DNA of 64,000 nt, taken from a virus. Under the pieces are notes generated by a model. It was not told the DNA's origin and made no database searches. It saw only the letters and a list, made by a program, of their open reading frames with translations. The translations under genes and the position numbers were made by a program. The stretch lies in the IMG/VR virus record IMGVR_UViG_3300045988_161343. One strand, given 5' to 3'. Positions 2 to 63,328 of the stretch are shown here, in pieces; the stretch's first letter is position 1, and the number at the start of each line of letters is the position of its first letter.

Positions 2-748
2 CACGTTTTGGATAAACCGCATATCTTTTTAGATGAAATTATGCGACAGGCACAAGATAGTGAAATTATTAGATTATCTATGTGGGTACGAGAAGGTAAG
101 CCCCTTGGGCAATTCCCAGTAGCTAAAGAATAGGTCTAGATTTTAAGGCCATATGAATTAATTCCAGAAATGTATGATTGGGCAGATCAAACTTTATGTG
201 CTTCTAATAAAAGACGTATTGAAATTAATAATAAAGTTCGAGAGCGACAAGGACGAGGAGCTACTCCAGAAATAGGAGATAAAATCATAGGATTAACTAA
301 TCATTGGGATTTTACATCTACTGATGGATTATGGCCTTTAACTAATGGATGTATTGGAACAATTACTAATTATCAAATTATTCCATATAATTATCCAAGC
401 TTTATTTATAATAAACAACTCCAATATATGTTTACGGGGATGGATATACCTAATGGAAGATTTGAATCTATACCTATTGATTATGATGCTTTAATTACAG
501 GTACTCCAGCCTTTGATAATAAGCAAGCATTTAGAATGAATAGTTTTGCTAGAAAATCTGATGCATTAGAAGCTCCTTATTATTTTGCTTATGCTTATGC
601 AATAACTGTTTGGAAAGCTCAAGGTAGTGAATGGGATAAAGTGTTATTAATTGAAGAGGCCCATCCTTTTGACACATTAGAACATTAGAAATATTTATAT
701 ACTGGCATTACAAGAGCCAGTGAAAAATTAGTAGTTATAAGGAAATAA
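2..748 (+). CDS. SF1 helicase (RecD/Dda/Pif1-like), C-terminal part; gene starts upstream of window
   Basis: Frame of ORF 170..688 extended through 3 in-frame TAG; motifs AYAITVWKAQGSEWDKV (helicase motif V) and YTGITRASEKLVVI (motif VI) lie on both sides of a TAG; stops at TAA 746-748. Confidence 0.6.
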
Positions 749-751
749 TAT

Positions 752-1351
752 ATGAATGTATTAAGTATAGATTTTGATATTATTATGGCACCAAGTATTA
801 ACTTATATAATAGCATGGTACCATAGGCTCATTGGGAAGATTTATTAAAAAGTTTACCTAATCTTACTACTACTCCTGCTGATTTAAATATTTATTCTAA
901 TATACTTAGATATTTATTACGGACTATAGATAAAACAACTTCTATTTATATTTCTTATGGTCATAATAAAATAAAAGAATATTTACAATATGATTATGAT
1001 TTAAATATAACTAATATAGATCATCATCATGATATTTTTTATAATCCTAAAGACGCAGAAAATAAATTATGTGATTGTACTTGTGCTGATTGGGTTAAAT
1101 ATTTCTATGATTAGGATAAATTAAAAGATTATACTTGGGTTCACAATGACAATTCTTGTGATCCTAATTTTGAAGTAAATTTTAAATATAACAAAATACC
1201 ATTTAAGGAATTTAAATTTACTAATTCGTATGATAAATATTTTATCTGTTTATCTCCAGAATGGGTTCCACCTTATTATCATAGTTTATTTTATACTCTT
1301 TTGGACTGTTTAAATGAAAAAAATAATTATCATTTGGAGATTATAGAATAA
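752..1351 (+). CDS. hypothetical protein (about 199 aa, 2 internal TAG)
   Basis: RBS aaggaaataatatATG; single frame to TAA at 1349-1351 with in-frame TAG after MVP and after YFYD; not in standard-code ORF track because of TAG. Confidence 0.5.
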
Positions 1352-30877: not shown

Positions 30878-30905
30878 AATGAGGAGGAAATTAATCCTCC
30901 TCATT
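30878..30905. terminator. hairpin between the tape-measure gene and the next tail gene
   Basis: aatgaggaggaaattaatcctcctcatt, then RBS and ATG of next gene. Confidence 0.4.
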
Positions 30906-33900
30906 TAGATTTATTTGCACTTATATATTGAGCCGCATTATTACTAAGATTAGACAATGCTTCTTCAATTTCATAATGATCAGTAACTCCTGGGAAGTCT
31001 GCTTGAATAGTAACTTCTTGCTTAATTGGCTAAGTTTCATAAACAGGTGGAGTAGTTTTATCAATTAAATTACCCAACTTTATCTATCCAAAATTAATCA
31101 TTGATTGCACTTGTTTATCAACCCAATCATTCATATTACGAACAATATCAACTGCACGAAGTATATTAGAAGTATCTTTTTGGTTAAGAATTAATTCTTT
31201 AGGATGGACTTTAATAATTTTACCATTATCAAGTCCAAAACCTTGTCCTTTAGCCCAATTACCAGTATAAGCACCAGAAGCAGCACCATTTCCGTTTAAA
31301 ATATCATCTAACCATTTTTCATCTTTTTCGCTAGTAATCTATTTCATTTCGTCTTTAGTCCAATAATCAGTACTAGAATCATTCTTTAATTCTTGACCCT
31401 CATTACGCATATTATCTAATTTTTCATTACGGGCTGTAACTACATCATCAATACTCGTCCAAACGTTACCATTTTTATCAACAACAGTACTTTCCCCATT
31501 CTTCATACGAATAGCAATAGCACTTAAATCAACACCAACTAAATTTCTAGCACCACTTCCGCCGCCACTACTGCCAAAGTTACCATCAATATACTATTCA
31601 TTCTTAGCTAACTCTTCATCAGTCCGCTTAGAATATTTCTATTCCCAATCAAGAACCATTCCAATAGACTAAGAAATATAGCCCATTAATACATTAACAA
31701 GCTCTTCAATTTCATCACACAATTTTTGAATATGTTCTTCAAGACTATCAAGAGTACCGCCCATATCAGAACCAAAGTTTTCCCAAGATGTACCAGCAAC
31801 ATTCATTGCTGCTTCAACAACTTTTTGCCAATCTTTATAATTGGTTTGTAATTCACTAATTGTAGTATTAGAATTATTAACAAATAACATATAAGCATCA
31901 TTATAATCATACAAATCAGTCATTTGGCCGTAGAGAGTATCATGGAATGTTAATCCACTATTTACAACACCTTTATTTAATTCATCAAGTAAATATCTTT
32001 GTCTTTCAACATAATATTCTTGTAATGATAATAACTAATTTGAATAATCAGCAGAATTCTTGTCAAGATCTTGTAATGCTTCTTTAAAATCAATTTGATT
32101 CTAAATTAACTATTCACTTACATCATTAATATAATCTTTGCTAAGCTATCCTAATTCATGAACAGCATCTTCATATTTCTATGTAGCATCTTCAATTTTT
32201 TCTTCATCTGCATCATAAGCATAAGTCCAGTTGCCTGCGGCATCACGCACTAAACGCATTGAAGTTTTGGAATTTTGTTGCTCCATAAGAGCTATTTCAG
32301 CAAGTTGTAAGTCATATTTCTTCTACAAATACTCAAGGTCATATTGGCTCATCTGGACGCCATCGGCCTGAAGATCGTGAATCTCTTGCTAAATGTCTCT
32401 AAGTTTTTGTTTAGCTAAAAGGTCATTAGTATCAGCCAGCTATAAATTTAGCTAACGATTTAATTTATTTAATTCATATAAGCGTTCGGCATCATCAAGA
32501 TATTCTTCATTGATAGTTTTTGCTTTTTCGTATTTGTCTTGGAAATCTTCAAGAGTTTCAAATGGTGATAATGCATTACTTAATACATTAACGGCCATTT
32601 CAACACGCATTTCAAATAAATCTTGAGCAGCTTCAAGTGTTTCTTCCCAAGAAGCTAAAAATTCGTCAGAAGCTTTTTCAGTTTCTTGTTTTAATACTTC
32701 AACTTGATTCTCCCAGAATTTAACAGAAGATGTATCACCATCAGCCTGACGATCAGCAAGTGCAGCCTATGCCTCTTTAGTTGCTTTAGCCAAACCATCC
32801 ATTTGTGCTTTTAAGGATTTCATTTTGCCTAACATTGTTTCTACCTTAGTAGCGCCAATCTAAGTTTTTAATCCCATATCAAGCATTGAACGGCCAGACA
32901 AATCAATAATATTATTAAGATGGTCAAGCATTGATGTATAAGTATCAAGACGTTCTATCTACTTATCAATTTCATCAAGGGCTAAGTCTAGAACATTCTA
33001 AACTAAATCTTCAATATCATTACGCAAGTCTAGAATAGCTTCATTAACATCTATCAAATCACTTTGATATTCAAGTATCTATTCATCGAACATTTGTTCA
33101 TAACCTGGATACTTAGCTTTCGCGGCGTTCAACTAATCAATACCCTAACGTAATGTAGCACCTTTATCAAAGAGCTATAACATTTCTTGCTCTTGGTAAG
33201 CAAATCCTTCAAGCATTGCTTCAATAGTTTGTTTATTACCATGGGCCTATTTAAGAAGTTTTTCTTGATAATAATTAAGACGTTTAATCTAATAATCAAT
33301 CTATTTAACTTTCCAATCAATAGCTTTTGTAATGGCTTCGAGTTCAAGTTCAGCAGCTTCTTTTTCTTTCTGAGCGATAAGAGCGACATTTTCATCAATG
33401 TTCTATTGAATACCCATAGGACCATCAAGACTATCTTTGATTTTAGTAAACCATTCATTCAGGTCTTCTTCACTCATGCCATCTTCAAGATTTTTTTGAT
33501 ACTAAGCCCAAACTTTACCCCATAGCTCAGAAGCATTAGCAATTTCACCATCATCAGTAAGTTTTATTTCAAACTCTGGATGCTCTTTATTAAATTCTTC
33601 TACTTTAAGTTTTAATAATTTTTTCCAAGATTTAATCTAATCTTCAAGAATATCTTGCTCTTCTTTTAATAATTTTATTTCTTCTTGAATATATTTAGCA
33701 GAGTCTTCAGGATTAGCTCCATCACGTAAAGCTTCAAGACGATCACGCTTCTTTTCTTTGGTTTTTAATAGTTCATCTTGAATTTCTTTACCAATATCAT
33801 TAGCGGATTTAGATTCAGAGCCGCCTCCGCCTCCTCCACCGCCTTTACTACCATCTTCAGTAGTTAAATATTTTCCACCGTCTCCTTGAGTGACAATAGA

Positions 33901-36900
33901 ATTTTCAGAAGCAACAGAAACTATATCACCAATTTGACTCTTTAAATTTCTTAATTTAGCAGCGTCATCAGATGTAAGTTCACTAATATCTTTACCACCC
34001 ATAATATCAGCCATCTGAGCAAAACATTCTAATAATTGCTATAGCTAATCAGTAGTGAAATGAATGCCTACTTGGCCCATAGCATTAATCCATCCGCACA
34101 TTTCTTCTAAAGAACCACTGATAGGAGTTATGGCAGCTAAAGCCTAAGAACCATCTGCTGTAATTCTACCATTAACTACAAATCCATCGTTCTAAGATAA
34201 AAGATTAGTTATTTCAGTTAATTTAGATTGAGCTTCAGTATATAATGTTGAAAAATCTAATTTTCCCGCAGATTCATTTATTTTTTCGATTAAACCACTA
34301 TCTACCTGAGAAAACATATCTAAGACTTGACCAGCTAAAGCTGCTTCATCATCATTACCCCATAAAAATTTTTCTATTAATGGTTGATTCATCTAATAAT
34401 CTGATTCAGAAAAATTAAATAAATCTTTTACTTTTTGTTTTAAATCAGCTTCTACTTCAGCAGTATCTTCACCTTCATCACGCAGCTCTTTATATTTTGT
34501 TTTTAATTCACTAATTTCTTTGGTAGCTTCTTTTATTTCATTATTACGTAAAGCATTATATAAATTATTAATAGCTTTTTGGGCGGCATTAGCATTATCT
34601 CCAGCCTACTCCATTTCATAATTATACTAATTTAAAGCTTCAGTATTACCTTCAATATCTTGATTTTTAGCAGCCCAACTTACTAAACCTTGCTAGCTAG
34701 CCTCATCCCCTAAATTAAAGCCTGTCATTTGATTCATTTCTTTTACTGAATTAGCATCAGTATAAGCATTAGTTCTTAATAAATCAGCATTATATGATCC
34801 ATCAATATTAGCCATATAAGCATCTATTATTCCTTGAATAATACCAGCCTAAGTAGCTGAGTCCTAACGTTTATAAAAATCTAAATCATAATTACCGGTT
34901 TCATCAGTACCAACTAATTTTGCTATTTCTTCAGGACTACCAAAAATATCTAGCATTTGCTACATATAACGGCCTCGAATATCTGTAAAATCTCCTGCAG
35001 CCATAGCTTCTAAGTTATTAGCATAATCATGTCCATTAATACCAATTCTAGTACCTAAATTAAACTAATTATTCCAATTTTCCTAAGCAGTTTCTGCAAC
35101 ATTATGCTATTCCTCAGCTCTATCTATTCCAGCCTAAGTTAAAGCATTTTTAGCAGCAGTATCAAAATCTTTAATTTTTACATAGGTATCCGGGCCAGTC
35201 TAAACATAATAATCTTCAGGATTTAATCCAGCAGCTTTAAAACCTTTAGTAATTTCATCATATTTTTCTTGAGTAATAGAACTACCAACTTCTTGACCCA
35301 TCAAATTAAAGATTTCAATTAACAAATCTCTAAAAGTAGTAAAATCTTCTATAGGCAATTTATTATTAGCAGTTTCTTGCATCATATCATAGAAGCCTTT
35401 CCAAGCTCCTTCATCATCTGATACAACAATACCTAAATCTTCTAGAGTATCAATAAATTCTTCCCAAGTTCCAGAAGACCAATCAAAATCAGCTATTTTA
35501 TTTAGCTAATCAAAAGTCAAATCTTTTCCTGCTGCATTAATAGCTTCAGTGAATGCTGCTACTCCATCTTTACCAGCTACTTTAAATATATCTTCAGCAA
35601 TCTAAGAAATACGAGATTTTAATGAAACACTGTATCCCTCAAATTCATCTATTGCCTTTGATATATCATCTTTATCTTCCAGACTTAATATATATTTAAA
35701 AGCTTTTTTATTACTTATATCTTCAATATTAGTAATCTAATGCGATGCTTCTTCTACTATAGCTTCACCTAATTCTTTACCGCTAGTTACGCCTAATTCT
35801 TTCATCATATTAGACATATATGATTTTACAGTTTCTTGCTATTCAGGCTCTAATATATTAAAATCTTTACCAAATAAACTCTATCCAATTAAATTCTATA
35901 AATCTTCATCTTCAAAGCCTTTTTCTATATTTGTTTTTAACTATTTAAGCTAATCTTGAGTAAAATTACTTAAATCACCATCATTGCCAAAAAATTCTAA
36001 AATACCTTGACCTATAATTCCTTGATTACTCATACCAGTCTAGAATTTTTGAGCCATAGCATAAGTAGTCTAAAGTTCTTCTCCCATAGCCTACATAGTA
36101 GCTATTTCAGTAGCAACTTTTGAGAATGATATAGTTTTTCCATTCTCTAATTGGAATGACCTATTCTAACCTTTACCAATTACAGAATTTTTCTAGTCTA
36201 ATTTATATTCGCTATCATTTTTATCAATTTTAGCTGCCTCTAAATAAGCATCCCATAAATTGCGTAAAGCTTGATCTCCTTTGCCAGCTCCACCAGCATT
36301 TTCATCGTGAGTTCCTATTTCTCGGTCTTTACCAGTGCCGTCATTCCAACTAATAGTTCCATTGTCATTATAAAAGCTATTTTTAATAGCTTCAATATTA
36401 GCATCTACTAAAGCAGTAGTTATTTTAGCATCTTCAGTAGACATAGTATCTAATCCAAGAGCCTATTGGACTGAAGCTTCTTTCGTAACCTATAATGTAG
36501 CATCAGTATTTGCTTGTATTACTTTTGAGACATTAGATATAGCAGCTTGAACATCATCAGTATTAAATTTATCTGCGATTTTCTAAGCATAATCATTTAA
36601 AGTCGTATTGTCATTGAGAGTTTCAAATCCGTTATTTTTTAATGCCTATTCGATAATACTAACTTGTTCTTCCTAACTTTTATTCTATAAATTTTCCTAA
36701 TTATTCAAAATTAAATCTGCTATACCTGGCATTACTGAAGTATATTGTCCATTTTTTGTTAATCCTCCAGTTGTAGTGCCACTCTAAATATTAAGAACAC
36801 CCTAAAGATTACTTGTTAAGTTCTATTTAGCTTTTTCAATATTTAAGTCTTCTAAATTGCTTTGTTCATTAGCTAGAGCATATTGCTATTGAAGAATCTA

Positions 36901-39900
36901 TTTATCATAAATAGACTATAATTTATCAACAGCACTTTGGTCTATCCAAATTTCACCAGTATCTTTCTTACCCCAAGCACCTTCCATATTCTTTAGCTCA
37001 GGATAAGTATTTAAAATATTAAGAGCTTCTTCATTAGCTTTAGTTAACTATGCACGCCATTCTTTAGTACCAACAGTACATTCATCTAAAGCAGATTTAA
37101 CAGAGCTATAACTATCAAATACTGATTTTAACTATTCAGCTTTATTCTTTGTTTCTTCTAACTAACTTTTAAAACTCTCAACAGCCTATTCAGAACGTTC
37201 AATTTGTTTTTCTATAGTAAAAGACTAAGCTGTATTATATACTTTAACCAATACAGCAATGGCAGCAACTACTGCTCCAATTATTAAAGCATATTTACCC
37301 AAAACAAGTAAAGATTTAGTAAACATTGCATGAGTTGCCGCACCACTAGCCGCTAATTGCTATTCAGCAGTTCCTGCAGAACCAGCAGCTACTCCTAATT
37401 CTTTAAGCTTGGCGGTATAAGCATCAAGACCAGTTTGCATAATTTTAGCTCTAAATCCAGAGCTATTCTCTATCTTTGTCTTTAAAGCTGCCTATAAATC
37501 AGAACCCTATAAAGACCCTCCTAAACCAGTCATTATTGATAAAATATTAGTACCTAGTCCCTTCCAATTAGTTCCAATTTCTTTTAATCCACTAGCTAAC
37601 TAATTTACTCCATTAATTAAAGAAGGAATAGCAAAACTGGCCGAAGTAATACTCTAAGTTAATTTTTCTCCAAAATCTAATTCGCTATTATTTAAAGTAT
37701 CAAACATTCCTTTTAAGCTATTAATTCCAATGCCTAATTGAGAAATACCCTAAAAACTAGAAACTAATCCTTGAGAAAAACTATATATAGATCCTTGACT
37801 AGCTTTTAATTCTGCGTTAAAAGCTTCAATAGCACTCTCATATTTTTCAACCGCTCCTTTGTTCTACAAAAGAGCCTCTTTCTCATTTACGTAATCTGTA
37901 AGACACTATCTTAAAGCATTAGACTAAGCTTTTGTTAATTTTTCTGCTTTAATTTTCTAATTAACATAATTATCAATTTCAAGATTAACGTCTCTTAAAT
38001 TATTAACTTCAGCTAATATATCTTTTCTAAGAGTACCTTTAGCACCATTACTTAGATTAGAATTGTTACCCTATTGAATTAACTAATTTAATTTACTATA
38101 TCTTTGATTATTTAAATCTAATTGACCAAATTGAGAAATAAAATCTTTAAAAGAACCATTTGAATTAATTTTTAAAGACTTTAAATCTTGCATTGTTTTA
38201 TCATTATAAAAATTATCAACAATCTTTTGGCCTTTTTTTAAGTTATTGTCAAAATAAATTACGCCCTTATCTCCACCAAATTTTTTATTATTATCTTCAA
38301 AAATTGTATTGCGAGCATTACGTAAATTGTTATTACTCTAAGTTTGTTGAGCTTCTATGCTTTTTTTAGATTCTATAGCTATTTGTCCATAAGCCTAAGA
38401 AATTTTTAATAATGTCTATAATCTTAATTTATCTGTTTCATTTAACTAATTATTTGCTAGCTATAAATCATAAGAAGCCTCTGCAGCTTTAACCATTGTA
38501 GTTGTTTCTAATTCAACTGAGCCCTATTTTGTTAAATCAGGTTTTTCTTCATAAGTTGTAAAGGTCTTTAAAACATTTATCATCTACTGCTTCATAACCG
38601 CAGCCTAATTTTCAGCAGCTCCGCTGTCAATAAACAAATTGGAAGCCATACGCTGCATATTATTTACAATATCAGGACCGAAGCTTTTTAGCATTAAAGT
38701 AGAAATAACACTTAATACACCAGGCAATCCGCCTAATGAATCAATCAATTTGCTTGTAATATTTAATGTATCACTTAATGTATCATTTAATCCGATAAAA
38801 AATTTATCACTAACTAATTGCTTATAAATTTCTTCAAGAGAAGCTTGTACTCGCTTTTTAGAAGCTTCCCAACTTTCAGCATAAATATCAGCTTGTTCTT
38901 GTAAAGTACCTTCAGAATTTTTAGCCACTCCAACTAGCTCTTTAAAATAATCTTTATTCTCCATAAGATTAACTAATTGAGTGTATTGACGAACACCACC
39001 AACAGTCTATGCAAGAGCCACTTGTTCAGCACGACTTAAACTATCCCACTTATTCATCATTTCATCAAGGATAGTATTCATATCTTTTAACTCACCCTAT
39101 TGATCTTTAATACTAATACCAACTTTTTCAAGGGCTTTAGAATATTTATTTAAATCAGTACCATCTTCAAGAGTTTCTCCAAGAGTCAGACCCTAAATAC
39201 GTGCAAATAAGGTTTTAAGGCTATTACCTACTGTATTCGCACTTTCACGTGTTTTAGCAGTTAATGTAGCTAATGCAGATGTAGCATATTCATAACTAAG
39301 ACCAATAGTATTAGCAACAGATGCGAATTTCTATATACCTTCTGAAATTTCATCAGTACTAGAAGCAGTATACGCACCAAGTTTAGTCATTACATCTGCA
39401 TAATACTCCAGAGATTTGCTACCATCATAGAAGTTATTCCAAACAGCAGTTAACTAATCAGATACTTTAGAAGCACTTTCACCTGCGGCGTTAGCCATTT
39501 TAATAGTAACTTCAGTACGATCAGTAACTTCTTTATCACTTAAACCCTATTGATAATAAATTAAAGAAGCATTAGTATAATTAGTAGTAGTTGTACTTAA
39601 TGCTTGAGCAGCCTTATTAGCTTTTTCAGCAAACTCAGCCATCTAATCATTATTCTATCCAGTAACTATACGAATATCATTTAATGATCTATTTAAATCT
39701 TCTGCATAATAGTAAGCTTTCTATAAAGAACCCTATACTCCATGCATTAAGTTAGATGAAATTTGCCATTTGGCTGTATTAGCTAATGTCTTTTTAAAAT
39801 TATCTAATATAGCGTTAGTTCTTTTTAAAGGAACTTCAGCATTAATAACAGACTATGCTAATGCAACAAATGCTTTATCACCTGTTGGGCCTAGATTCTC

Positions 39901-40212
39901 TAAGTGTGTAGCAAAATCCTAAAGAGTATAACCACTCTAGCTTAAACTCTTTGAAAATTTTGATAAATCTAAACGCCCAGTATTAACATTAGTCGCCTAA
40001 TCTAAAGCAATTTTTAACTCCTAAACTGCTGCCGAGGCTTCATCTATTTCTTTTTTAGTGGCATTAACATCAAAAAATTTAATATTTTTTGTTGCTATCT
40101 AATTCATTAAAGTATCTAATGAACTTTGTAAATCTCGTAATTGCTATTTAGCTTGACCTGTATCAGCTGTAAATCGCATATTAACATTATAATTAGCACT
40201 GTTATTAGCCAT
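30901..40212 (-). CDS. tail tape measure protein, about 3103 aa, about 96 in-frame TAG, no TAA/TGA
   Basis: RBS aaaggagctattttATG at 40212; one phase links ORFs 38605..38964, 36193..36444, 35200..35385, 34192..34392, 33637..34014, 31669..31923 to TGA at 30901-30903; TMP-like N-terminal motif WDSLSRAEQVALA-TAG-TVGGVRQY; Gly-run GGGGGGGG. Confidence 0.65.
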
Positions 40213-40256
40213 AAAATAGCTCCTTTCTCTCATTATAAATTTCTATATATATAAAG

Positions 40257-40289
40257 AAAAGGCGAGAGGAACAAAGCCTCTCGCCTTTT
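40257..40289. terminator. rho-independent terminator upstream of the tape-measure gene (bidirectional)
   Basis: aaaaggcgagaggaacaaagcctctcgcctttt. Confidence 0.6.
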
Positions 40290-56257: not shown

Positions 56258-57323
56258 TTAGGATTTCATTTTTTCTTTACGAGAACTATTTCGGCATTTT
56301 TTGCATATACTATAAAATCCATCTTTACTTGTTTTATTATAGGAAAAATATTTATTGTGAGCCAATTTAATTTGCCCACATCGACTGCACTTTTTGTATT
56401 TACCTTTTTTTTGAGTTGTGTAATACCATTCTAAATATTTATCAACAGCTTTATCAGCAATAAGCTTTGGTATTTTATTGCGAAATAAACTTGATATATA
56501 TTCTAAACTGTGGGTAATATTAAATTCTTCTTGTAAAATTTTTTGAATTTCTATATTTTGTAATCCATCAATTTTACATTCTACAATACGCATTAACATA
56601 GGATAATCAGCCAAGGCTTCATCGCAAATATTTTCAAAATCATAAATAAGATACCAAGTATCATCTTCAAAACGATCCCAACTATCTTCTTTTAATCGAG
56701 AATAGTTACATAAGATACAAGAGCAAATTTCAGGAATCATTAATGAAATTCCTTCTGGAATTGGATATCCATCATCATCAAATATTTTTACATCTTCATC
56801 TAATTTAATTTTATATTTAGATCGTGTAAGCTTTACTGGTACTATTGGTTTCCGATAAGCATTTTTAATAACATATTGGTCTTTGCGCATTTCTATTAAT
56901 GCTTTTTTTATAGTGAAAGCATCTTTACCACTCACTACTTTCATTTTTGCTTCCCAAGTTGTAATAGCGTCTTTTAATTGTTTTAAGCTAGGAATTTCTT
57001 CTAAATCTTTTTTTGTAATTGTAACTTTTGGCTAAAATATCATATTTTTATCACTATTAATTAAATTATATATACCATCTTCACCATTCTCTAACTGGGA
57101 AACAAGTCCTTCGAAAGAAGTTTCACGTTTATTAACTGTCATTAATCTATTATCAGTTAATATTTTCTTTTCTTTTTTTTCTTGTTTCTCCATACATAGA
57201 ATTAGATAATCTGCGAGGATTTCTAAATACTTTTCATTAGGATTTGGATTTTCCTCTAAAATTTTTTTTACTAATTCATTTCGTTCTTCAGGAGTTTCAA
57301 GAGTATAATCTAATTTTATCAAG
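56258..57323 (-). CDS. first gene of the minus-strand block: protein with C-terminal Zn-ribbon (about 355 aa, 1 TAG)
   Basis: TTG start after RBS ggaggt; fragment 57032..57379 joins ORF 56258..56944 through TAG; CSRCGQ...CKKC. Confidence 0.4.
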
Positions 57324-57350
57324 ATTAATACCTCCAATCCTTCTAAAAAA

Positions 57351-57379
57351 ATTATAACACAAAAAATTTGCAAAGTCAA
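57351..57379 (-). promoter_or_regulatory. sigma70-like promoter for the minus-strand morphogenesis block (TTGACT-17-TATAAT on minus strand)
   Basis: Reverse complement of 57351-57379 reads ttgactttgcaaattttttgtgttataat. Confidence 0.5.
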
Positions 57380-57433
57380 CCATGGCCAAAAATTTTTATA
57401 GTATTTAGTAAAAAAATTATGTAAAATGTAAAA

Positions 57434-57462
57434 TTGACAATTATAAAAATTTTTTATATAAT
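57434..57462 (+). promoter_or_regulatory. consensus sigma70 promoter TTGACA-17-TATAAT for plus-strand genes
   Basis: ttgacaattataaaaattttttatataat, about 30 nt upstream of ATG 57492. Confidence 0.5.
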
Positions 57463-57491
57463 ATTTATATAAAATTAAAGGAGATAATTTT

Positions 57492-57647
57492 ATGAGAAAA
57501 CCTCGTGGTATTTTAGGTAGTATGGCTTCTAAAGCTAAACGTAGAGCAACTAATAGTGCAACTAGAGCTATTTATCAGCTTATGTGGGGTGAAAACCCTA
57601 AACAGCAAGGAGCTTATAATCCTATTAAAGAACGTAAGAAAAAGTAA
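57492..57647 (+). CDS. small basic (Lys/Arg-rich) protein, 51 aa
   Basis: RBS aaaggagataattttATG; intact ORF. Confidence 0.45.
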   Translation: MRKPRGILGSMASKAKRRATNSATRAIYQLMWGENPKQQGAYNPIKERKKK

Positions 57648-58225: not shown

Positions 58226-58453
58226 ATGCTGAAAACAGCTTATACAAGAAAACTCGATACAGTTGGACGTTTAATGATTCCTTCTAAGCTTCGTGAAGAA
58301 TTGCATATGGTAAATGGTCATAATTATGAATTTTATATTGACGAAGTAGATGGTAAAACTTTTTTATGTATTGAATGTCCTGAAGCTAGTGATGCCGTAG
58401 CTCTTGCAAAAGAAACGTTGGAATAGAATGGGTATCGAGTAATTAAGGAATAA
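58226..58453 (+). CDS. AbrB/SpoVT-family (swapped-hairpin) transcriptional regulator (about 75 aa, 1 TAG near C-terminus)
   Basis: RKLDTVGRLMIPSKLREEL matches the AbrB N-domain GRVVIP.ELR signature; RBS gaaaggagtgagttgaATG; ORF 58226..58426 reads through TAG to TAA. Confidence 0.65.
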
Positions 58454-58459
58454 AATTAA

Positions 58460-58499
58460 AGCGGGAAAATATTTTCCCGCTTATTTTTTTTTATTTTTT
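58460..58499 (+). terminator. strong rho-independent terminator
   Basis: agcgggaaaatattttcccgct followed by T-rich run. Confidence 0.7.
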
Positions 58500-58627
58500 G
58501 AAATATCGTTATTTAAAATTTAAATTATTTTCCGTTTTCTGAAATTAAAAATGAGTTTAGAAATTATTTTGCCAGGTAGGAAGATTTATCCATTTTTTCC
58601 ATTTTTTTTACACGAAACCCTGCCCCC

Positions 58628-58692
58628 CCGCTTCACTTGACTAAAGTGTTAAAGTCTATTGTCTTACTTTACTTGAGTGAAGCAAGTTAGAT
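58628..58692. repeat. inverted repeat gcttcacttgac...cttgagtgaagc flanked by C-runs
   Basis: Read directly; sits at the compositional boundary. Confidence 0.3.
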
Positions 58693-58737
58693 ACGACTAA
58701 CCCCCAAAAAAAATATTTCGATTTTTGAAAAAAAGTA

Positions 58738-58771
58738 GTTGACATTTTCGGGCATAGGTGCTATTCTATAA
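58738..58771 (+). promoter_or_regulatory. sigma70-like promoter copy 1 (TTGACA then tgcTATTCTATAAT) with A-tract upstream element
   Basis: gtagttgacattttcgggcataggtgctattctataat. Confidence 0.4.
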
Positions 58772-58848
58772 TCAGAAATTGACCACAGGACAACGCAAGC
58801 AAGGCAAAACGCCAAGCGAAAAAAATTCAAGAAATTTTGAAAAAAGTT

Positions 58849-58877
58849 CTTGACAAGCCGGAAGTCCTATGGTACAA
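58849..58877 (+). promoter_or_regulatory. sigma70 promoter copy 2: TTGACA-17-TGgTACAAT (extended -10) with similar A-tract upstream element
   Basis: gttcttgacaagccggaagtcctatggtacaat; upstream attttgaaaaaagttc repeats the element before copy 1. Confidence 0.5.
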
Positions 58878-58883
58878 TGAGTA

Positions 58884-59138
58884 CAACGAAGCAAGGGAAA
58901 CACAAACAACGCAAGCCCTTGCAAGTGTAGTAGAATGACCGGAAACAGGCCGAAGCACCGAGCGGCGTTGAACATTGACAAGTGAATCTAAGCCGAGCGT
59001 CTGCACCACATAGCGGACGCAATGGTAGAGCATAGAAAGTGTGGTGCAAGCGGTAGGGCAATCCAACGCCTACGGCAGATAGTAACACGGATAGGTGACA
59101 ACTAACAGTCGAATAATATGTAAAGGATTGGTAAAATC
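58884..59138 (+). ncRNA. about 255-nt GC-rich structured leader or candidate ncRNA, no plus-strand ORF
   Basis: Hairpins gcaaggg...cccttgc and tgcaccaca...tgtggtgca; repeated acaacgcaagc motifs; only antisense spurious ORFs in the track. Confidence 0.25.
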
Positions 59139-59273
59139 ATGGTATATGCAATTAAAACAAGCGAACAGGACAAACAGAAAGCAATCAAGATAGAGTTAGC
59201 AGAGCAAGCTGACGATATCGTAAAATATGTCAAACAGTACCATATGTAAGGCAATAGCTTCGACTATGATGGT

Positions 59274-59543
59274 ATGCTGGACAAGTATCATGAGTATGCG
59301 GCGAAGAATATTCAGCAATGGGATAACCTTACATGGGCTATTCATAGTGCTGAATATGACTTGGAGCATACCGACTATAATATGGATATGGAAGCCGGCA
59401 ACCCATGTGTCGCATATGAGGCCGCATATGAGAAGCTGACGGACTTGCAAGATGAGGCCGAGGAATGGGCGGATATCTTTGAGCATATGCTCGAAGACTT
59501 CTTCTACAAACTGCACGACTTGCTATATGGTGAAGAAGCATAA
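59274..59543 (+). CDS. hypothetical acidic protein (89 aa)
   Basis: Intact ORF, TAA stop. Confidence 0.5.
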   Translation: MLDKYHEYAAKNIQQWDNLTWAIHSAEYDLEHTDYNMDMEAGNPCVAYEAAYEKLTDLQDEAEEWADIFEHMLEDFFYKLHDLLYGEEA

Positions 59544-59599
59544 GCTTCTTCACCCATCCACCAACCAACCAACTAACAATATATGGAGGTATAATTATT

Positions 59600-59935
59600 A
59601 TGACCAGAACCAATAGAAGAGCTATCCGTAAGGACGCTATGCAGAACACTATCATCCGCATTAACAATGCCATGGGCAAGGTCAATTTCTCTGACCCTAA
59701 TGGCAAGGCCACCTTTCATAAACTGATGGACCAGAAAGACTATATCGCACAACAGATCGCCGAAGCAAGCTACACCGAATACTCGATGAAAAGTGACCAT
59801 CGGGAGCTGAAGCGTATTTTCGCTCATATGGATGAAGGTGGTTGTGCTGACTGGGTCAAGTGGGATATCGAGCAGCTGGCAGCAAGTCGGCGTCGCTGGT
59901 CTATCGCAACAAGCAAGCAAATCTGGTTGGGCTAA
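59600..59935 (+). CDS. hypothetical protein (111 aa)
   Basis: RBS tatggaggtataattattATG; intact ORF. Confidence 0.5.
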   Translation: MTRTNRRAIRKDAMQNTIIRINNAMGKVNFSDPNGKATFHKLMDQKDYIAQQIAEASYTEYSMKSDHRELKRIFAHMDEGGCADWVKWDIEQLAASRRRWSIATSKQIWLG

Positions 59936-59968
59936 TTGCCCAACCAGACCACAGAAAGGGGATAACAT

Positions 59969-60158
59969 TATGTACACTATCTATAATCACACGACTGGCC
60001 AGTATGGCATTATCTACCATAGCCTTATCGCAGCACGGTCTATGGCTCATGCTTACAGCCTATGGGCAAAGAATGACAGAGATGTCATTGATATGCAAAC
60101 TGGTGAAGTCATGAGCACATTCGAGAAAGGCAAAGAAACTTACAGAGCCAAGGGTTAA
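59969..60158 (+). CDS. hypothetical small protein (63 aa)
   Basis: RBS aaaggggataacattATG inside ORF 59832..60158; followed by hairpin ccaagggttaaaacccttgg. Confidence 0.45.
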
Positions 60159-60192
60159 AACCCTTGGCTCCCAATAGAAAGGATGATACAAT

Positions 60193-60492
60193 ATGGCAAC
60201 TGCACGAAATCCCTATGCTGAAATCCGTTTTCTTGATAAGAACAATGTTCAAACTGATTATTGCAGATGGCAATTATCCAGCACATTCAACTGCCCTTGG
60301 CAGCCTGCCTTCTACCGCGAACTTGAAGAAAAGCTCTACATCATGCAGGAACTGGAAATCGTAGGGTTTGGCAGTCGGTCTGCGGTATTTACTTCTGGTC
60401 TGCTAACTACCTACCATTTTACAAGCTATCAGATTGTACAGGCAATCGAGCATACAGCCGACCACCTGACGTTAGTGGTGAGGGACATTTGA
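60193..60492 (+). CDS. hypothetical protein (99 aa)
   Basis: RBS aaaggatgatacaatATG; TGA stop. Confidence 0.5.
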   Translation: MATARNPYAEIRFLDKNNVQTDYCRWQLSSTFNCPWQPAFYRELEEKLYIMQELEIVGFGSRSAVFTSGLLTTYHFTSYQIVQAIEHTADHLTLVVRDI

Positions 60493-60560
60493 GTCCCTCT
60501 ACCGCTTTCTGACAATTCAACCGAGCACATGAATCCAAAAGTCGAAAGGAAAATTTCAAA

Positions 60561-60713
60561 ATGAAAAATCTCAAACTCGCGTTAACATTATCTGGCATAA
60601 TTATTATGCTCTGGATTTCTGTTTCATTTTGTCAGGTGGTCCGCCATAATAATCCTGCTGGCGGCAGACCTGAATACAGTAGTTGGAATTTCTTCGTGAT
60701 GATGGAGGATTAA
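60561..60713 (+). CDS. small membrane protein (50 aa)
   Basis: RBS gaaaggaaaatttcaaaATG; LTLSGIIIMLWISVSF hydrophobic. Confidence 0.4.
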   Translation: MKNLKLALTLSGIIIMLWISVSFCQVVRHNNPAGGRPEYSSWNFFVMMED

Positions 60714-60714
60714 A

Positions 60715-60900
60715 ATGAAAAATCAACATAGCGAAGTCATTAAAATGTTCAATGACCATACTCAGGAGATTATAGAGGAGGCGTTCGATGACCCTATTGA
60801 CGCCGACTACTATGAATACCATTTGGATTTACTTGAGATCCACTACCAGAGATACAGCCGCGGCGAGCTGCTGTACGAAGAAAATAAACCGGAGGGCTGA
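60715..60900 (+). CDS. hypothetical acidic protein (61 aa)
   Basis: Intact ORF; TGA stop inside terminator hairpin ggagggctgaaaagccctcc (60891-60910). Confidence 0.5.
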   Translation: MKNQHSEVIKMFNDHTQEIIEEAFDDPIDADYYEYHLDLLEIHYQRYSRGELLYEENKPEG

Positions 60901-60933
60901 AAAGCCCTCCACCAATAGAAAGGAATTGATAAT

Positions 60934-61245
60934 ATGATAAACATTCGCACAATCAAGAAACTGGCTGACGGCGATGGTCTGACACTCAAAAATGGAAAAA
61001 TCAAGAGGTACAAGAGTGGCTATCAGGTAGCTACTAATGGCGTCGAGGTCATCAGTCCTGAAATGGCAATACAGGCAGTTCGAGAATTCAAAGGCACTTG
61101 CGGCATTTGGCTTGAAAATGGCAGATACTACATTGACATTTCTAAACGAGTCAGCACAAAACGCGAAGCAGTTGAAATTGGCAAGAAATGTAATCAACTT
61201 TCAATTTACAGATGGCGTGGAAATCCTACATGTCTTTACATTTAA
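60934..61245 (+). CDS. hypothetical protein, paralog A (103 aa)
   Basis: MINIRTIKKLADGDGLTLKNGKIKRYKSGYQV...; RBS aaaggaattgataatATG. Confidence 0.5.
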   Translation: MINIRTIKKLADGDGLTLKNGKIKRYKSGYQVATNGVEVISPEMAIQAVREFKGTCGIWLENGRYYIDISKRVSTKREAVEIGKKCNQLSIYRWRGNPTCLYI

Positions 61246-61267
61246 TATTTGAGAGGAGAAATAAAAA

Positions 61268-61588
61268 ATGATTAACGTGAGAACTATTCGGAAAATGCAG
61301 GACGGCGATACCCTGAACCTTAAGAACGGCAATATCAAAAAGTACAAGGGCGGTTTTCAAGTGAATACCGCCACAGTTATCCTTGACACTCCAGAAAAAG
61401 CAATCGAATGGATGAAACGTTTGACTCGGAATTTTGGAAAGAGCTGCCAGATTCGTTTCAAAGATGAAAAGTATTATGTCAGCCTGACCGAGCATACCTA
61501 CACGCGGCGGCAGGCAAGAGAAGTTGCAAGCGAACATCTTCAGGGCATTATTTACGATTGGAATAATCTGGCACACCAGGCAGTTTAA
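61268..61588 (+). CDS. hypothetical protein, paralog B (106 aa)
   Basis: MINVRTIRKMQDGDTLNLKNGNIKKYKGGFQV...; same N-terminal architecture as the gene 23 nt upstream. Confidence 0.5.
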   Translation: MINVRTIRKMQDGDTLNLKNGNIKKYKGGFQVNTATVILDTPEKAIEWMKRLTRNFGKSCQIRFKDEKYYVSLTEHTYTRRQAREVASEHLQGIIYDWNNLAHQAV

Positions 61589-61591
61589 TCC

Positions 61592-61734
61592 CGAAATCCC
61601 AGGAGTTGGTAATCCCAATTCCTGGGATGAATATTTATTCATTTTCTTTAATTCATTATCCCTTTAATCAAATGAATTGCCTCGCCGGGGCGTGGCGAAA
61701 TTGATATATCCGCAGCAAGCTCGCCACGCCCCGC
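61592..61734 (+). terminator. two tandem hairpin terminators (tcccagga...tcctggga and gccggggcgtggcga...tcgccacgccccgc)
   Basis: Read directly downstream of paralog B. Confidence 0.5.
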
Positions 61735-61892
61735 ATTTTCCATTTAATACCAATTCTGAATATTTCCAGCCAAATTCTACCATATCTGGTATTATGTTCC
61801 ATTTCCCATATCCTACCAGCTTATGGTATATAATTCCATACTAAATGTTTCCAGAATCTTTGTGCATATTGACGAATAAAAAAATTTGACTT

Positions 61893-61926
61893 TTCTATTG
61901 ACATTTACCATAGGGTGTGCTATTAT
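61893..61926 (+). promoter_or_regulatory. sigma70-like promoter TTGACA-17-TATTAT(ATAAT)
   Basis: ttgacatttaccatagggtgtgctattatataat. Confidence 0.45.
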
Positions 61927-61974
61927 ATAATTGTTCCAAGGGAACAGATAAAAAATGAAATGGAGATACAAAAA

Positions 61975-62139
61975 ATGACTACTGAAAAAATCGCTGAACT
62001 GCTGAACGAATGGATTGATAATGACCATGATTTCAGTACGGAATCCATCAATGATTTCTGCAATACATATGCCCGCAATTATGACGAGTATATGGGTCTG
62101 TGGTACACAGTCTGCGGTTGCATCGAGGAGGAGGGTTAA
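61975..62139 (+). CDS. hypothetical small protein (about 54 aa; alternative start 61960)
   Basis: RBS ggagatacaaaaaATG inside ORF 61915..62139. Confidence 0.4.
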   Translation: MTTEKIAELLNEWIDNDHDFSTESINDFCNTYARNYDEYMGLWYTVCGCIEEEG

Positions 62140-62143
62140 CATC

Positions 62144-62284
62144 ATGTATGAGTTCGAAATGTATAATGTCAACACGAAAGAAATTGAAACTGCATATGGC
62201 TACTCCCTAGCAGACGCTAGGGAGAGAAGCCCAAAGTATAACAGCCGTGAATGGGTTTGTCTAATGTCTACTTATATTGATTAA
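62144..62284 (+). CDS. hypothetical small protein (46 aa)
   Basis: RBS gaggagggttaacatcATG; TAA stop. Confidence 0.4.
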   Translation: MYEFEMYNVNTKEIETAYGYSLADARERSPKYNSREWVCLMSTYID

Positions 62285-62486
62285 GGAGGAAATGAAAATG
62301 AAAATGTCTGAATTTGCAAATAACATTCTTGATAAGAAAATGCTGATTGAACTTATCAAACACCTTCCTTCTTGTAAAGCCTGTCCTTTCCAGAAGGCTT
62401 GTGAGAAAGCGGTTATTGATAATCCGGATGAATCTTGCGAACAGTTTCTGAACCGTTGGATTGAAGATGATAGGAACGAGGGCTGA
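62277..62486 (+). CDS. hypothetical Cys-containing small protein (69 aa)
   Basis: RBS ttaaggaggaaatgaaaATG; CKACPFQKAC; TGA stop inside hairpin gagggctgaaaagccctc (62479-62496). Confidence 0.45.
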   Translation: MIKEEMKMKMSEFANNILDKKMLIELIKHLPSCKACPFQKACEKAVIDNPDESCEQFLNRWIEDDRNEG

Positions 62487-62516
62487 AAAGCCCTCTTCCA
62501 AAAGGAGGAAATTAAA

Positions 62517-62840
62517 ATGGATATTACAAAATTGCAAGTCAGTCAGCATATCAAGGAAGACCGCTTGGATAGATATGTTGAAATTCAAATGAACACCGGA
62601 CTTGGCGAACCTGTTGCAAAATTCAAATATGAGGACAAATGGCAGATTATTACAAGTACAGGAGTGATTTTGATTACAGATAGCCGGATGGAATTTCTAA
62701 TCACATTGTATTATGTCAACATGGACAAAGCAACTGCAATTTTCAGACGAAATGGGCAGATAAAAATGCCGAAAGTAGTATATGACGCAATTCAGAAGAA
62801 CATGGCGAAAAAGCTAATCAAACATAGAAAGGAAAAATAA
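62517..62840 (+). CDS. hypothetical protein (107 aa)
   Basis: RBS aaaaggaggaaattaaaATG. Confidence 0.5.
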   Translation: MDITKLQVSQHIKEDRLDRYVEIQMNTGLGEPVAKFKYEDKWQIITSTGVILITDSRMEFLITLYYVNMDKATAIFRRNGQIKMPKVVYDAIQKNMAKKLIKHRKEK

Positions 62841-62842
62841 AA

Positions 62843-63070
62843 ATGAAAATCGAATATGAAAAGCCCAGACAGGTTATCCACTTCGCAGCTCTGGATGTTG
62901 GAACTGTATTCCGCGACCCGTCCGATGATATAATTTATATGAAAACTGAATATATTGATAATGACGGTGATGAAATCAATTCGATTGATTTAGCCACTGG
63001 AAACCTTGAGTGTCTTCATAATGACGCAAAAGTCTATCCCGTAGATGCTACATTATATGTTAAGGAGTGA
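62843..63070 (+). CDS. hypothetical protein (75 aa)
   Basis: Intact ORF directly after previous stop. Confidence 0.5.
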   Translation: MKIEYEKPRQVIHFAALDVGTVFRDPSDDIIYMKTEYIDNDGDEINSIDLATGNLECLHNDAKVYPVDATLYVKE

Positions 63071-63076
63071 TAAAAA

Positions 63077-63289
63077 ATGGAAGGATATAAAACATGGAAG
63101 TATCTGGTAATTAACTTCCTCCCTACAAAAGACTGGCCGCGACTGTTTTTTGTAGAAGCTTCGTGTCGCTCGGAAGCTGAATCTTATATTCGGAAGCACT
63201 GTGGGCAAGACTATATGTTGGTGGATAAATACGATGAATTTGTCGCAAAAATTCTTGATTATCCCGAAATTCCGCATTATAAATTCTGA
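63077..63289 (+). CDS. hypothetical protein (70 aa)
   Basis: RBS ttaaggagtgataaaaaATG. Confidence 0.5.
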   Translation: MEGYKTWKYLVINFLPTKDWPRLFFVEASCRSEAESYIRKHCGQDYMLVDKYDEFVAKILDYPEIPHYKF

Positions 63290-63299
63290 TTTCTATTTG

Positions 63300-63328
63300 A
63301 ATTTCCTCCCATATTTTGGGAGGAAATT
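63300..63328 (+). terminator. rho-independent terminator
   Basis: aatttcctcccatattttgggaggaaatt followed by T-rich tract. Confidence 0.55.

Follow-up and report, generated by a model that had tools for sequence, protein, structure and literature searches.

Organization and conservation of the control region

We analyzed a stretch of viral DNA of 64,000 nucleotides (IMG/VR record IMGVR_UViG_3300045988_161343; hereafter, the window), in which a 712-bp intergenic region separates a gene for an AbrB/MraZ-like protein of 66 aa from a plus-strand cluster of small open reading frames (ORFs). Between these genes lie an intrinsic terminator, AT-rich repeats, two palindromic sites, two promoters and an untranslated leader RNA, the latter carrying a 19-nt boxA of the type used in host ribosomal RNA (rrn) operons (Table 1). 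Using protein-anchored searches, we collected 8 IMG/VR loci and 25 metagenome loci (cited below by their L numbers), which gave 31 distinct leader sequences. The relatives are contigs of 184-193 kb from human-gut assemblies, and the inverted repeat formed by the palindromic sites, the promoter duplication and the structured leader are all conserved in 30 related human-gut phage contigs. A DNA similarity search against annotated phages returned no match, and a protein-anchored search of GTDB genomes found no prophage copy.

A first-pass annotation, made by a model from the letters of the window alone, had described the region as a regulatory hub with a structured leader or non-coding RNA. This description holds across the 31 distinct leaders: the promoters and the RNA fold are conserved, and the pairings covary in both of the leader types described below (types A and B). 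By our reading of the sequence, that annotation missed the key feature of the region, the boxA of host rRNA type within the leader, which points to transcription antitermination.

Table 1. Features of the control region, with positions in the window.
Feature	Position	Strand	Remarks
Intrinsic terminator of the AbrB/MraZ-like gene	58459..58482	+	10-bp stem, then T-run
AT-rich repeats of 25/38 nt, TTATCGTTTTYTGAAATTRAA(AATGAGTTTAGAA)	58495..58575		Between the terminator of the AbrB-like gene and the operator-like sites
O1, operator-like imperfect palindrome (ACTTYAYTTGAsTrAAG), left arm	58630..58647		Preceded by a C7 run, 58623-58629
O2, operator-like imperfect palindrome, right arm	58666..58683		Followed by a small hairpin, 58686-58701, and C5A8
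Promoter P1 with upstream A-tract	58708..58767	+	-35 TTGACA 58739-58744; extended -10 TGcTATTCT ending at 58767
Promoter P2 with upstream A-tract	58819..58878	+	-35 TTGACA 58850-58855; extended -10 TGgTACAAT 58870-58878
Hairpin P1 of the leader	58891..58922	+	7 bp here, 7-10 bp in relatives; 17-19-nt A/C-rich loop holds the second ACAACGCAAGC
Hairpin b	58940..58966	+	58949-52 / 58963-66; ends 2 nt before boxA
boxA	58969..58987	+	TGAACATTGACAAGTGAAT in the window; family consensus TGAACCTTGAAAAGTGAAT; single match in the window
Pseudoknot domain	58993..59045	+	P2a 58993-95 / 59023-25; S1 58997-59004 / 59013-20; S2 59005-10 / 59040-45
Hairpin P3	59050..59092	+	59050-57 / 59069-76; compensatory changes, e.g. 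GCUAUAGG/CCUAUGGC
Shine-Dalgarno AAAGGA and ATG of the first early gene	59122..59141	+	Conserved in all relatives

Tandem promoters

The first-pass annotation had noted two similar cassettes about 110 bp apart, each with an A-tract and a TTGACA element, and these are readily recovered: 58708-58744 and 58819-58855 are 70% identical at a spacing of 111 nt. When extended to ~105 nt, the cassettes show 58% identity, with an alignment score of 32 compared with -21 ± 9 for shuffled sequences. The likeness takes in the first ~25 nt downstream of each -10 element, which makes this a diverged tandem duplication that included both the promoter and the transcript start. Relative to the sigma-70/sigma-A consensus, promoter P2 matches at 11 of 12 positions plus the TG of an extended -10, and promoter P1 at 10 of 12 plus TG. 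We found P2 (cTTGACAAg-N13-TGnTAyAaT) together with its A-tract in 31/31 distinct leaders, and at the site of P1 a promoter is retained in all relatives despite diverged flanks, e.g., as TTGACT-N16/17-TATAAT. The short repeat that had been assigned to the two cassettes is also present, with ACAACGCAAGC occurring exactly at 58790 and 58906. Promoters P1 and P2 thus have the features expected of strong, near-consensus promoters of host sigma-A type, and we infer that both are transcribed.

A covarying leader RNA

From the predicted start of the P2 transcript (~58885) to the ATG at 59139, the leader would comprise ~255 untranslated nucleotides. It had been called long and GC-rich; the leader is indeed there, but its G+C content is ~48%, which appears rich against the 27-30% of the rest of the phage. 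No other DNA of the region is as well conserved as the leader among the most distant relatives. It is also kept better than the genes beside it, as in L007, which is ~90% identical in the leader and ~70% elsewhere. Of the two strong hairpins proposed for it, both are present (58997-59020 and 59050-59076), but the folding energy of the single sequence is unexceptional, with z = -1.85 for the plus strand and -1.48 for the minus strand. The evidence for a structured leader is covariation, not stability.

The 3′ half of the leader exists in two versions, type A (23 sequences, the window among them) and type B (8 sequences), which have unrelated sequences and like folds, and which have been swapped between phages with near-identical 5′ halves. 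We scored the two types on separate alignments. In type A, 94.5% of cells were paired and 10 pairs had changed on both sides, a result that 0 of 500 shuffles equaled, and pairing fell to 25-46% when the partners were slid against each other. In type B, 97.9% of cells were paired. The pseudoknot stem S2, which joins the loop of S1 to a strand ~30 nt downstream, was 100% paired in both types: in type A two of its pairs had changed on both sides, while in type B it has 7 bp, six of which showed compensatory changes with at most four pair types per position. At the location of P3, type B folds a different hairpin. The P3 loop (A/G)UCC (59061-64) may in addition pair with GGA(U/C) at 59089-92, a tentative contact for which 3 of 23 sequences showed co-change.

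For the 5′ half, we built a covariance model, R1, and re-aligned all sequences to it. Such a model-fitted alignment favors structure; nevertheless, slid controls were only 36-46% paired, arguing that the covariation signal of the 5′ domain is real. Hairpin P1 showed double changes in 9/9 model pairs, with 93% of cells paired, and a list made without alignment contained at least six unrelated stem sequences at this one place. Helix b occurs as GCCG/CGGC, GCGG/CCGC, GCUG/CAGC, GGCG/CGCC and GUUCG/CGGAC, with double changes in three of its four pairs. A possible pseudoknot partner, helix a (58940-42 / 58958-60), is tentative, with a single double change (CCAG/CUGG in L018). Taken together, covariation supports the hairpins P1, b, S1/P2a and P3 as well as the pseudoknot S2, and the frequent G-U pairs indicate that the plus strand is the one that folds. 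We found no conserved reading frame across the leader, whose variable sites have no third-position bias. Minus-strand ORFs over the leader were rejected as coding: they stay open only through the low T content of the plus strand (15.6%) and likewise lack third-position bias.

The Rfam 15 covariance models gave no match at the gathering score in the window and only chance-level matches at E up to 10 in 58400-59400, and no second copy of the leader, of boxA or of the operators was found elsewhere in the 64 kb. Searching bacterial and other viral loci for leader homology (nhmmer and model R1), we found boxA alone in common. Weak leader matches in L046, L060, L065 and L177 were discarded, being explained by the pattern used to fetch these loci. 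The structured leader RNA is described by no library.

A complex, pseudoknotted and covarying architecture of this kind is typical of aptamers, and the leader could mainly control the first early gene in cis, at the level of translation or in the manner of a riboswitch, with alternative folds that expose or hide the Shine-Dalgarno sequence, perhaps on contact with a ligand or protein, and with boxA incidental or secondary. The P3 loop CA(A/G)UCC is complementary to the Shine-Dalgarno region GGAUUG, type B contains AAUCC twice, and one consensus fold pairs the P3 loop with the Shine-Dalgarno sequence when a long helix, 58993-59010 / 59040-59057, forms. Yet the complementarity is short and absent from L024 and L018, the Shine-Dalgarno sequence is unpaired in most consensus-fold runs, and the pairs specific to the long helix do not covary, whereas those of S1 do. 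Moreover, no Rfam riboswitch matched, two core versions with unrelated sequences fit poorly with one ligand pocket, and the identity of the 19-mer with the rrn boxA would be left unexplained. We thus consider such a regulator unlikely. As individual candidates, sequestration of the Shine-Dalgarno sequence by the P3 loop was rejected because it is not conserved in type B, and the long helix was set aside as a switch for want of covariation in its specific pairs, while being kept as a possibility.

boxA in the leader and in ribosomal RNA operons

The most conserved stretch of the leader is a nearly invariant 19-mer, flanked by hairpin b on one side and the pseudoknot on the other. Consensus folds leave it unpaired, and it lies on the transcribed strand, in untranslated RNA, 85-90 nt downstream of the predicted P2 start. 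From this invariant linker of the phages, we derived a degenerate 19-mer pattern and used it to scan IMG/VR and the GTDB genomes. In IMG/VR, the pattern recovered the family itself and otherwise chance-like matches, while in GTDB genomes it had more than 120 matches, chiefly among Clostridia and Bacilli, and a single genome often contained several. Annotation with Rfam showed that in seven loci (L101, L122, L141, L125, L115, L081 and L123) the match precedes 23S rRNA by 30-420 nt, and that in L079 it lies upstream of 16S rRNA. With a strict regular expression, 14 of 122 among the matches listed lay at most 450 nt from an rRNA 5′ end, the commonest forms being TGCACCTTGAAAACTGAAT and TGAACCTTGAAAACTGGAT. 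The phage variants of L029 and of L015/L033 agree at 19/19 positions with motifs upstream of 16S rRNA (L079) and of 23S rRNA (L095, L106, L112 and others).

In a Pristimantibacillus genome, in which three rrn operons were examined, a spacer copy, TGCACCTTGAAAACTGGAT, lies 96 nt before the 23S rRNA, and a leader copy, TGCTCTTTGAAAACTGAAC, which the scan pattern could not have selected, lies 95-96 nt before the 16S rRNA; the two make up the classical leader/spacer boxA pair. In Anaerotignum and Tyzzerella, the rrn promoter AAAAAGTTGTTGACAAA...TGATAGTAT is followed by a hairpin and then by boxA at +34 to +45, the same layout as that of promoter P2 and its leader. In the bacterial loci, the likeness to the phage leader ends at boxA. 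These comparisons identify the phage 19-mer as the boxA of Firmicutes rRNA operons.

The boxA of Escherichia coli has reportedly been given as UGCUCUUUAACAA by Berg, Squires and Squires in 1989 (cited in PMC10250234), and the primer GTTCTTTGAAAACTGAAT presumably targets the conserved 16S-23S spacer. This primer serves in the detection of Mycoplasma by polymerase chain reaction (PMC3019172). In rrn operons, boxB, boxA and boxC follow directly after the rrn P2 promoter and again precede the 23S gene, and boxA is both required and enough for the antitermination complex to assemble, while the lambda nut site consists of boxA and boxB and is used with the N protein (PMC10250234). The boxA consensus varies by phylum, and boxA has been re-used outside rRNA operons, before CRISPR (clustered regularly interspaced short palindromic repeats) arrays (PMC7665894).

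Two further occurrences came out of the scans. In Oscillospiraceae metagenome-assembled genomes, 19-mers identical to the phage boxA consensus stand in non-rRNA intergenic repeats, after terminators and before ORFs, in L177 (104-209 and 1565-1626) and in L103 (three copies ~450 bp apart), and Clostridia may make wider use of boxA outside rRNA operons. An unrelated G+C-rich phage (L046, IMGVR_UViG_3300028805_000070, 300-960, minus strand) carries repeated units in which a palindrome, TGGATGTAATACATCCA, and a promoter are followed by a G+C-rich non-coding stretch of ~290 nt and then by a terminator; the boxA-like TTGAACCTTGACAACTGAAT is found in one of these units. These units match no Rfam family and may represent another boxA-bearing phage RNA.

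A perfect rrn-type boxA behind very strong tandem promoters could also serve a different end, the leader being a decoy RNA present in large amounts, perhaps as a processing product of the mRNA, that soaks up NusB-S10 or ribosomal proteins and cripples host rRNA synthesis in the course of host takeover. In keeping with this idea, RNase III could act on the long imperfect duplex 58993-59010 / 59040-59057, and the leader is conserved more than the genes it precedes. However, no terminator or recognizable processing site separates the leader from the ORF, the Shine-Dalgarno sequence and ATG following directly; a single boxA per transcript makes a weak sponge, and we know of no precedent. A decoy role appears quite improbable to us.

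The early operon

The plus-strand cluster of small early ORFs spans 2.5 kb at 40-45% G+C. Over 58700-63300, the G+C content rises from ~27-30% to 40-45% with a strong A>T skew, starting exactly at the P1/P2 cassette; it remains high over the operon of small ORFs, and in composition the early module is foreign to the remainder of the phage. The first gene of the cluster (59139-59543) starts where the first-pass annotation had placed the first ORF, but in the window it is cut by a TAA at 59247-59249, where 30/30 relatives have a sense codon. The relatives read through this position to make a single acidic protein (131-134 aa) that matches no family, and the window copy is a pseudogene, the product of a sequencing error, or a gene re-initiated at the ATG at 59274.

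The second ORF (ORF2, 59600-59935) encodes a small basic protein of 111 aa with a conserved Arg-rich N terminus, M(T/N)R(T/I)NRRxxRKxAM. Pfam (E = 0.046) and NCBIfam (E = 0.015) agree on a weak, sub-threshold match for it, ribosomal protein S11. We take this N terminus to recall the arginine-rich motifs of N type; homology of ORF2 to N was not detectable. A pairing of the Arg-rich motif with the leader version was considered and rejected, as motif and RNA type do not co-vary. As a partner of the pseudoknot, ORF2 is thus a tentative candidate. Further along, 60934-61245 and 61268-61588 are adjacent paralogous ORFs of ~105 aa (MINIRTIKKLADGDG... and MINVRTIRKMQDGDT...), a tandem duplication whose copy number differs in the relatives. 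The operon ends in terminator-like hairpins at 61596-61628 (14-bp stem) and 61687-61732 (perfect 12-bp G+C-rich stem); beyond them, consensus promoters overlap at 61898 and 61904.

Terminator, repeats and palindromes upstream of the promoters

The AbrB/MraZ-like gene (58226-58426) matches the Pfam MraZ/AbrB swapped-hairpin domain with 25 bits against a cut-off of 23; its protein has an antitoxin match in PHROG and weak SpoVT/MraZ matches. The stem of its terminator (58459-58482) shows compensatory substitutions in L006, L007 and L008, and this terminator is predicted to insulate the promoter cassette from upstream transcription. Downstream of it, the AT-rich repeats vary in copy number among close relatives, from about two degenerate copies in the window to five in L003 (4271-4394).

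The inverted repeat reported by the first-pass annotation is present, with arms (58630-58647 and 58666-58683) of 18 nt that are 83% complementary and whose centers are 36 bp apart. The repeat occurs nowhere else in the 64 kb (2 matches compared with 0.05 expected). In more than 20 relatives, O1 and O2 are conserved in sequence and not by compensation, and in L025 and L027 the second copy stands in direct orientation, which indicates that the unit itself is the palindrome. The inverted repeat thus consists of two copies of an imperfect palindrome of 17-18 bp, probably the operator of a dimeric DNA-binding regulator.

The whole of 58490-58715 could accordingly be an operator region through which a phage regulator, perhaps the AbrB/MraZ-like neighbor, switches the early promoters on or off. 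The two palindromes lie ~60-110 bp upstream of the -35 element of promoter P1, are unique in the window and conserved in sequence across lineages, also when direct as in L025 and L027, and the neighboring 66-aa gene passes the Pfam MraZ cut-off. On the other hand, there is no second site near the regulator's own promoter, proteins of AbrB type are loose in sequence specificity, and the most distant relatives (L017, L018, L041 and L043) keep one copy only, in altered form. Such a switch is a tentative proposal. It concerns the inverted repeat alone and is compatible with antitermination in the leader. The AbrB-like operator region of the first-pass annotation is therefore possible for the upstream repeat, with its conserved palindromic sites, but nothing specific links these sites to the AbrB/MraZ-like protein, which is a candidate binder.

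A replication origin had been suggested as well, and AT-rich repeats of variable copy number could act as iterons, the inverted repeat as an unwinding element, with the cumulative GC skew turning nearby. The skew minimum, however, lies at ~57 kb, ~1.5 kb away, where the coding strand changes (57.4-57.6 kb); no gene for an initiator or helicase loader was found adjacent, and the compensated pairings include G-U, as fits RNA rather than duplex DNA. We regard an origin at this place as very improbable.

Phage and host context

The window derives from a large, AT-rich phage (27-30% G+C across most of its length) that appears, by its proteins, related to phages of Firmicutes. A capsid-region protein shows its greatest similarity to the TAG-recoded gut phage phAss-1, followed by Enterococcus and SPbeta-like phages; an affiliation with the crAss 'Zeta' group, considered on account of the recoding, was dropped in view of these matches. 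On the minus strand from 13670 to 57571, late and structural genes carry in-frame TAG codons and make sense only if TAG is read through. In the 13.7-57.6 kb interval of this strand, frames of at least 150 codons sum to 5.6 k codons with the standard code and to 18.9 k with TAG recoded, and reading TAG as sense joins a gene of 3128 codons (30901-40287). A tRNA search of the 64-kb window found no tRNA gene, suppressor or other. The window also encodes a DNA polymerase and a sigma-factor-like gene. The latter (phrog_5767; 56258-57571, minus strand) is complete only with TAG read through, and back-to-back consensus promoters at 57379 (minus) and 57434 (plus), within 57351-57462, mark the divergence of the two transcription directions.

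A candidate antitermination cassette

Lambda and the rRNA operons are textbook cases of antitermination by boxA and Nus factors. We favor the reading that the region is the control head of the early operon and acts as an rrn-like or nut-like cassette for processive antitermination; our confidence is moderate, because every functional step has been deduced. In such a cassette, the tandem promoters of host sigma-A type would drive a structured, untranslated leader of ~255 nt, whose hairpins, with at least one pseudoknot, would leave the 19-nt boxA unpaired on the nascent RNA. Host NusB-NusE(S10) would bind this boxA and nucleate a complex of Nus factors on RNA polymerase, as on rrn operons and lambda nut. 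The polymerase so modified would move fast and withstand both Rho and intrinsic terminators, and could then cross the 2.5-kb early gene cluster, possibly running past the hairpins at 61596-61732. The pseudoknot domain 3′ of boxA would be a likely docking site for an additional factor, as boxB is for N, and the two palindromes upstream of promoter P1 a probable operator for a DNA-binding regulator.

Several points weigh against this reading. What we observed are the sequence elements and how they are conserved, the pairings in the RNA, and a 19-mer identical with the rrn boxA; transcription from promoters P1 and P2, Nus binding, read-through and the roles of pseudoknot and operators are all deduced from the sequence. 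We found no intrinsic terminator within the operon up to 61596, so that the need for antitermination is not obvious. The scan pattern came from the phages, which makes the match list partly circular, although the enrichment of matches close to rRNA genes and the independently found 16S-leader copy support boxA without such circularity. Similar 19-mers also occur in non-rRNA intergenic repeats of Clostridia (L177 and L103). A plain boxA function has no need of elaborate pseudoknots. The covarying hairpin b ends 2 nt before boxA, and no boxC-like sequence was recognizable in the leader. Lastly, antitermination by Nus factors and boxA is known mainly from E. coli, and its extension to Firmicutes is an extrapolation.

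More speculatively, the region might be a "pseudo-rRNA operon head" by which the host comes to treat early phage transcripts like pre-rRNA, with tandem promoters of the growth-rate type, an antitermination complex like that of rrn on a perfect host boxA and a cassette-like, previously undescribed pseudoknot RNA that recruits a further factor of phage or host. Were this so, no boxA-based antitermination system would have been known before in phages of Gram-positive bacteria, and the pseudoknot RNA would found a new class of structured RNA. We see this extended version as possible rather than probable.

If confirmed, the favored antitermination cassette would extend boxA/Nus antitermination to an uncultivated, stop-codon-recoded lineage of human-gut phages of ~185-190 kb. 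We found no report in the literature of this mechanism in phages of Firmicutes. The cassette would explain how early genes in the standard code could be launched at a very high rate before the recoded late program. The form of boxA provides a sequence-based clue to the host, suggesting a Firmicute that carries that boxA. The leader itself, a new and well-covarying pseudoknotted RNA in two interchangeable versions, is tractable for asking what besides NusB-S10 loads onto the polymerase.

Comparison with known systems

The phage region resembles the control region of rrn operons, where P1 and P2 promoters with UP elements stand in tandem, in having two strong promoters ~110 bp apart, each with an upstream A-tract, and a structured untranslated leader in which a hairpin stands directly 5′ of an unpaired boxA equal to that of Firmicutes rrn operons (PMC10250234). 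In contrast to rrn, it precedes protein-coding genes, it lacks a recognizable boxC or leader-trailer helix, and its phage-specific pseudoknots have no counterpart in bacterial genomes.

With lambda nut, it shares the position in the leader of a phage early operon, a boxA of host type with a hairpin within ~8 nt on its 3′ side, and a small basic protein with an Arg-rich N terminus (ORF2) encoded just downstream. Unlike in lambda, the host would be a Firmicute and not an enterobacterium, and in place of a 15-nt GNRA-like hairpin the phage leader has a 3′ pseudoknot of ~55 nt, whose two versions are exchangeable. Hairpin S1 starts ~10 nt after boxA and has its loop engaged in S2. Furthermore, no N homolog is detectable, and no co-variation links the Arg-rich motif to the RNA version.

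As in the RNA-only processive antiterminators HK022 put and the EAR element of Bacillus eps operons, a structured RNA follows just after an early or operon promoter and could act in cis on the polymerase. Those elements work without boxA, which is the most conserved feature of the phage leader, and no Rfam family, EAR included, matches that leader. The boxA copies that lie upstream of CRISPR arrays offer a parallel of another kind, in which the rrn boxA has been re-used outside rRNA operons to shield a long or poorly translated transcript from Rho (PMC7665894). Those copies are chromosomal and have no flanking covarying structures, whereas the phage boxA sits within a fold of 255 nt.

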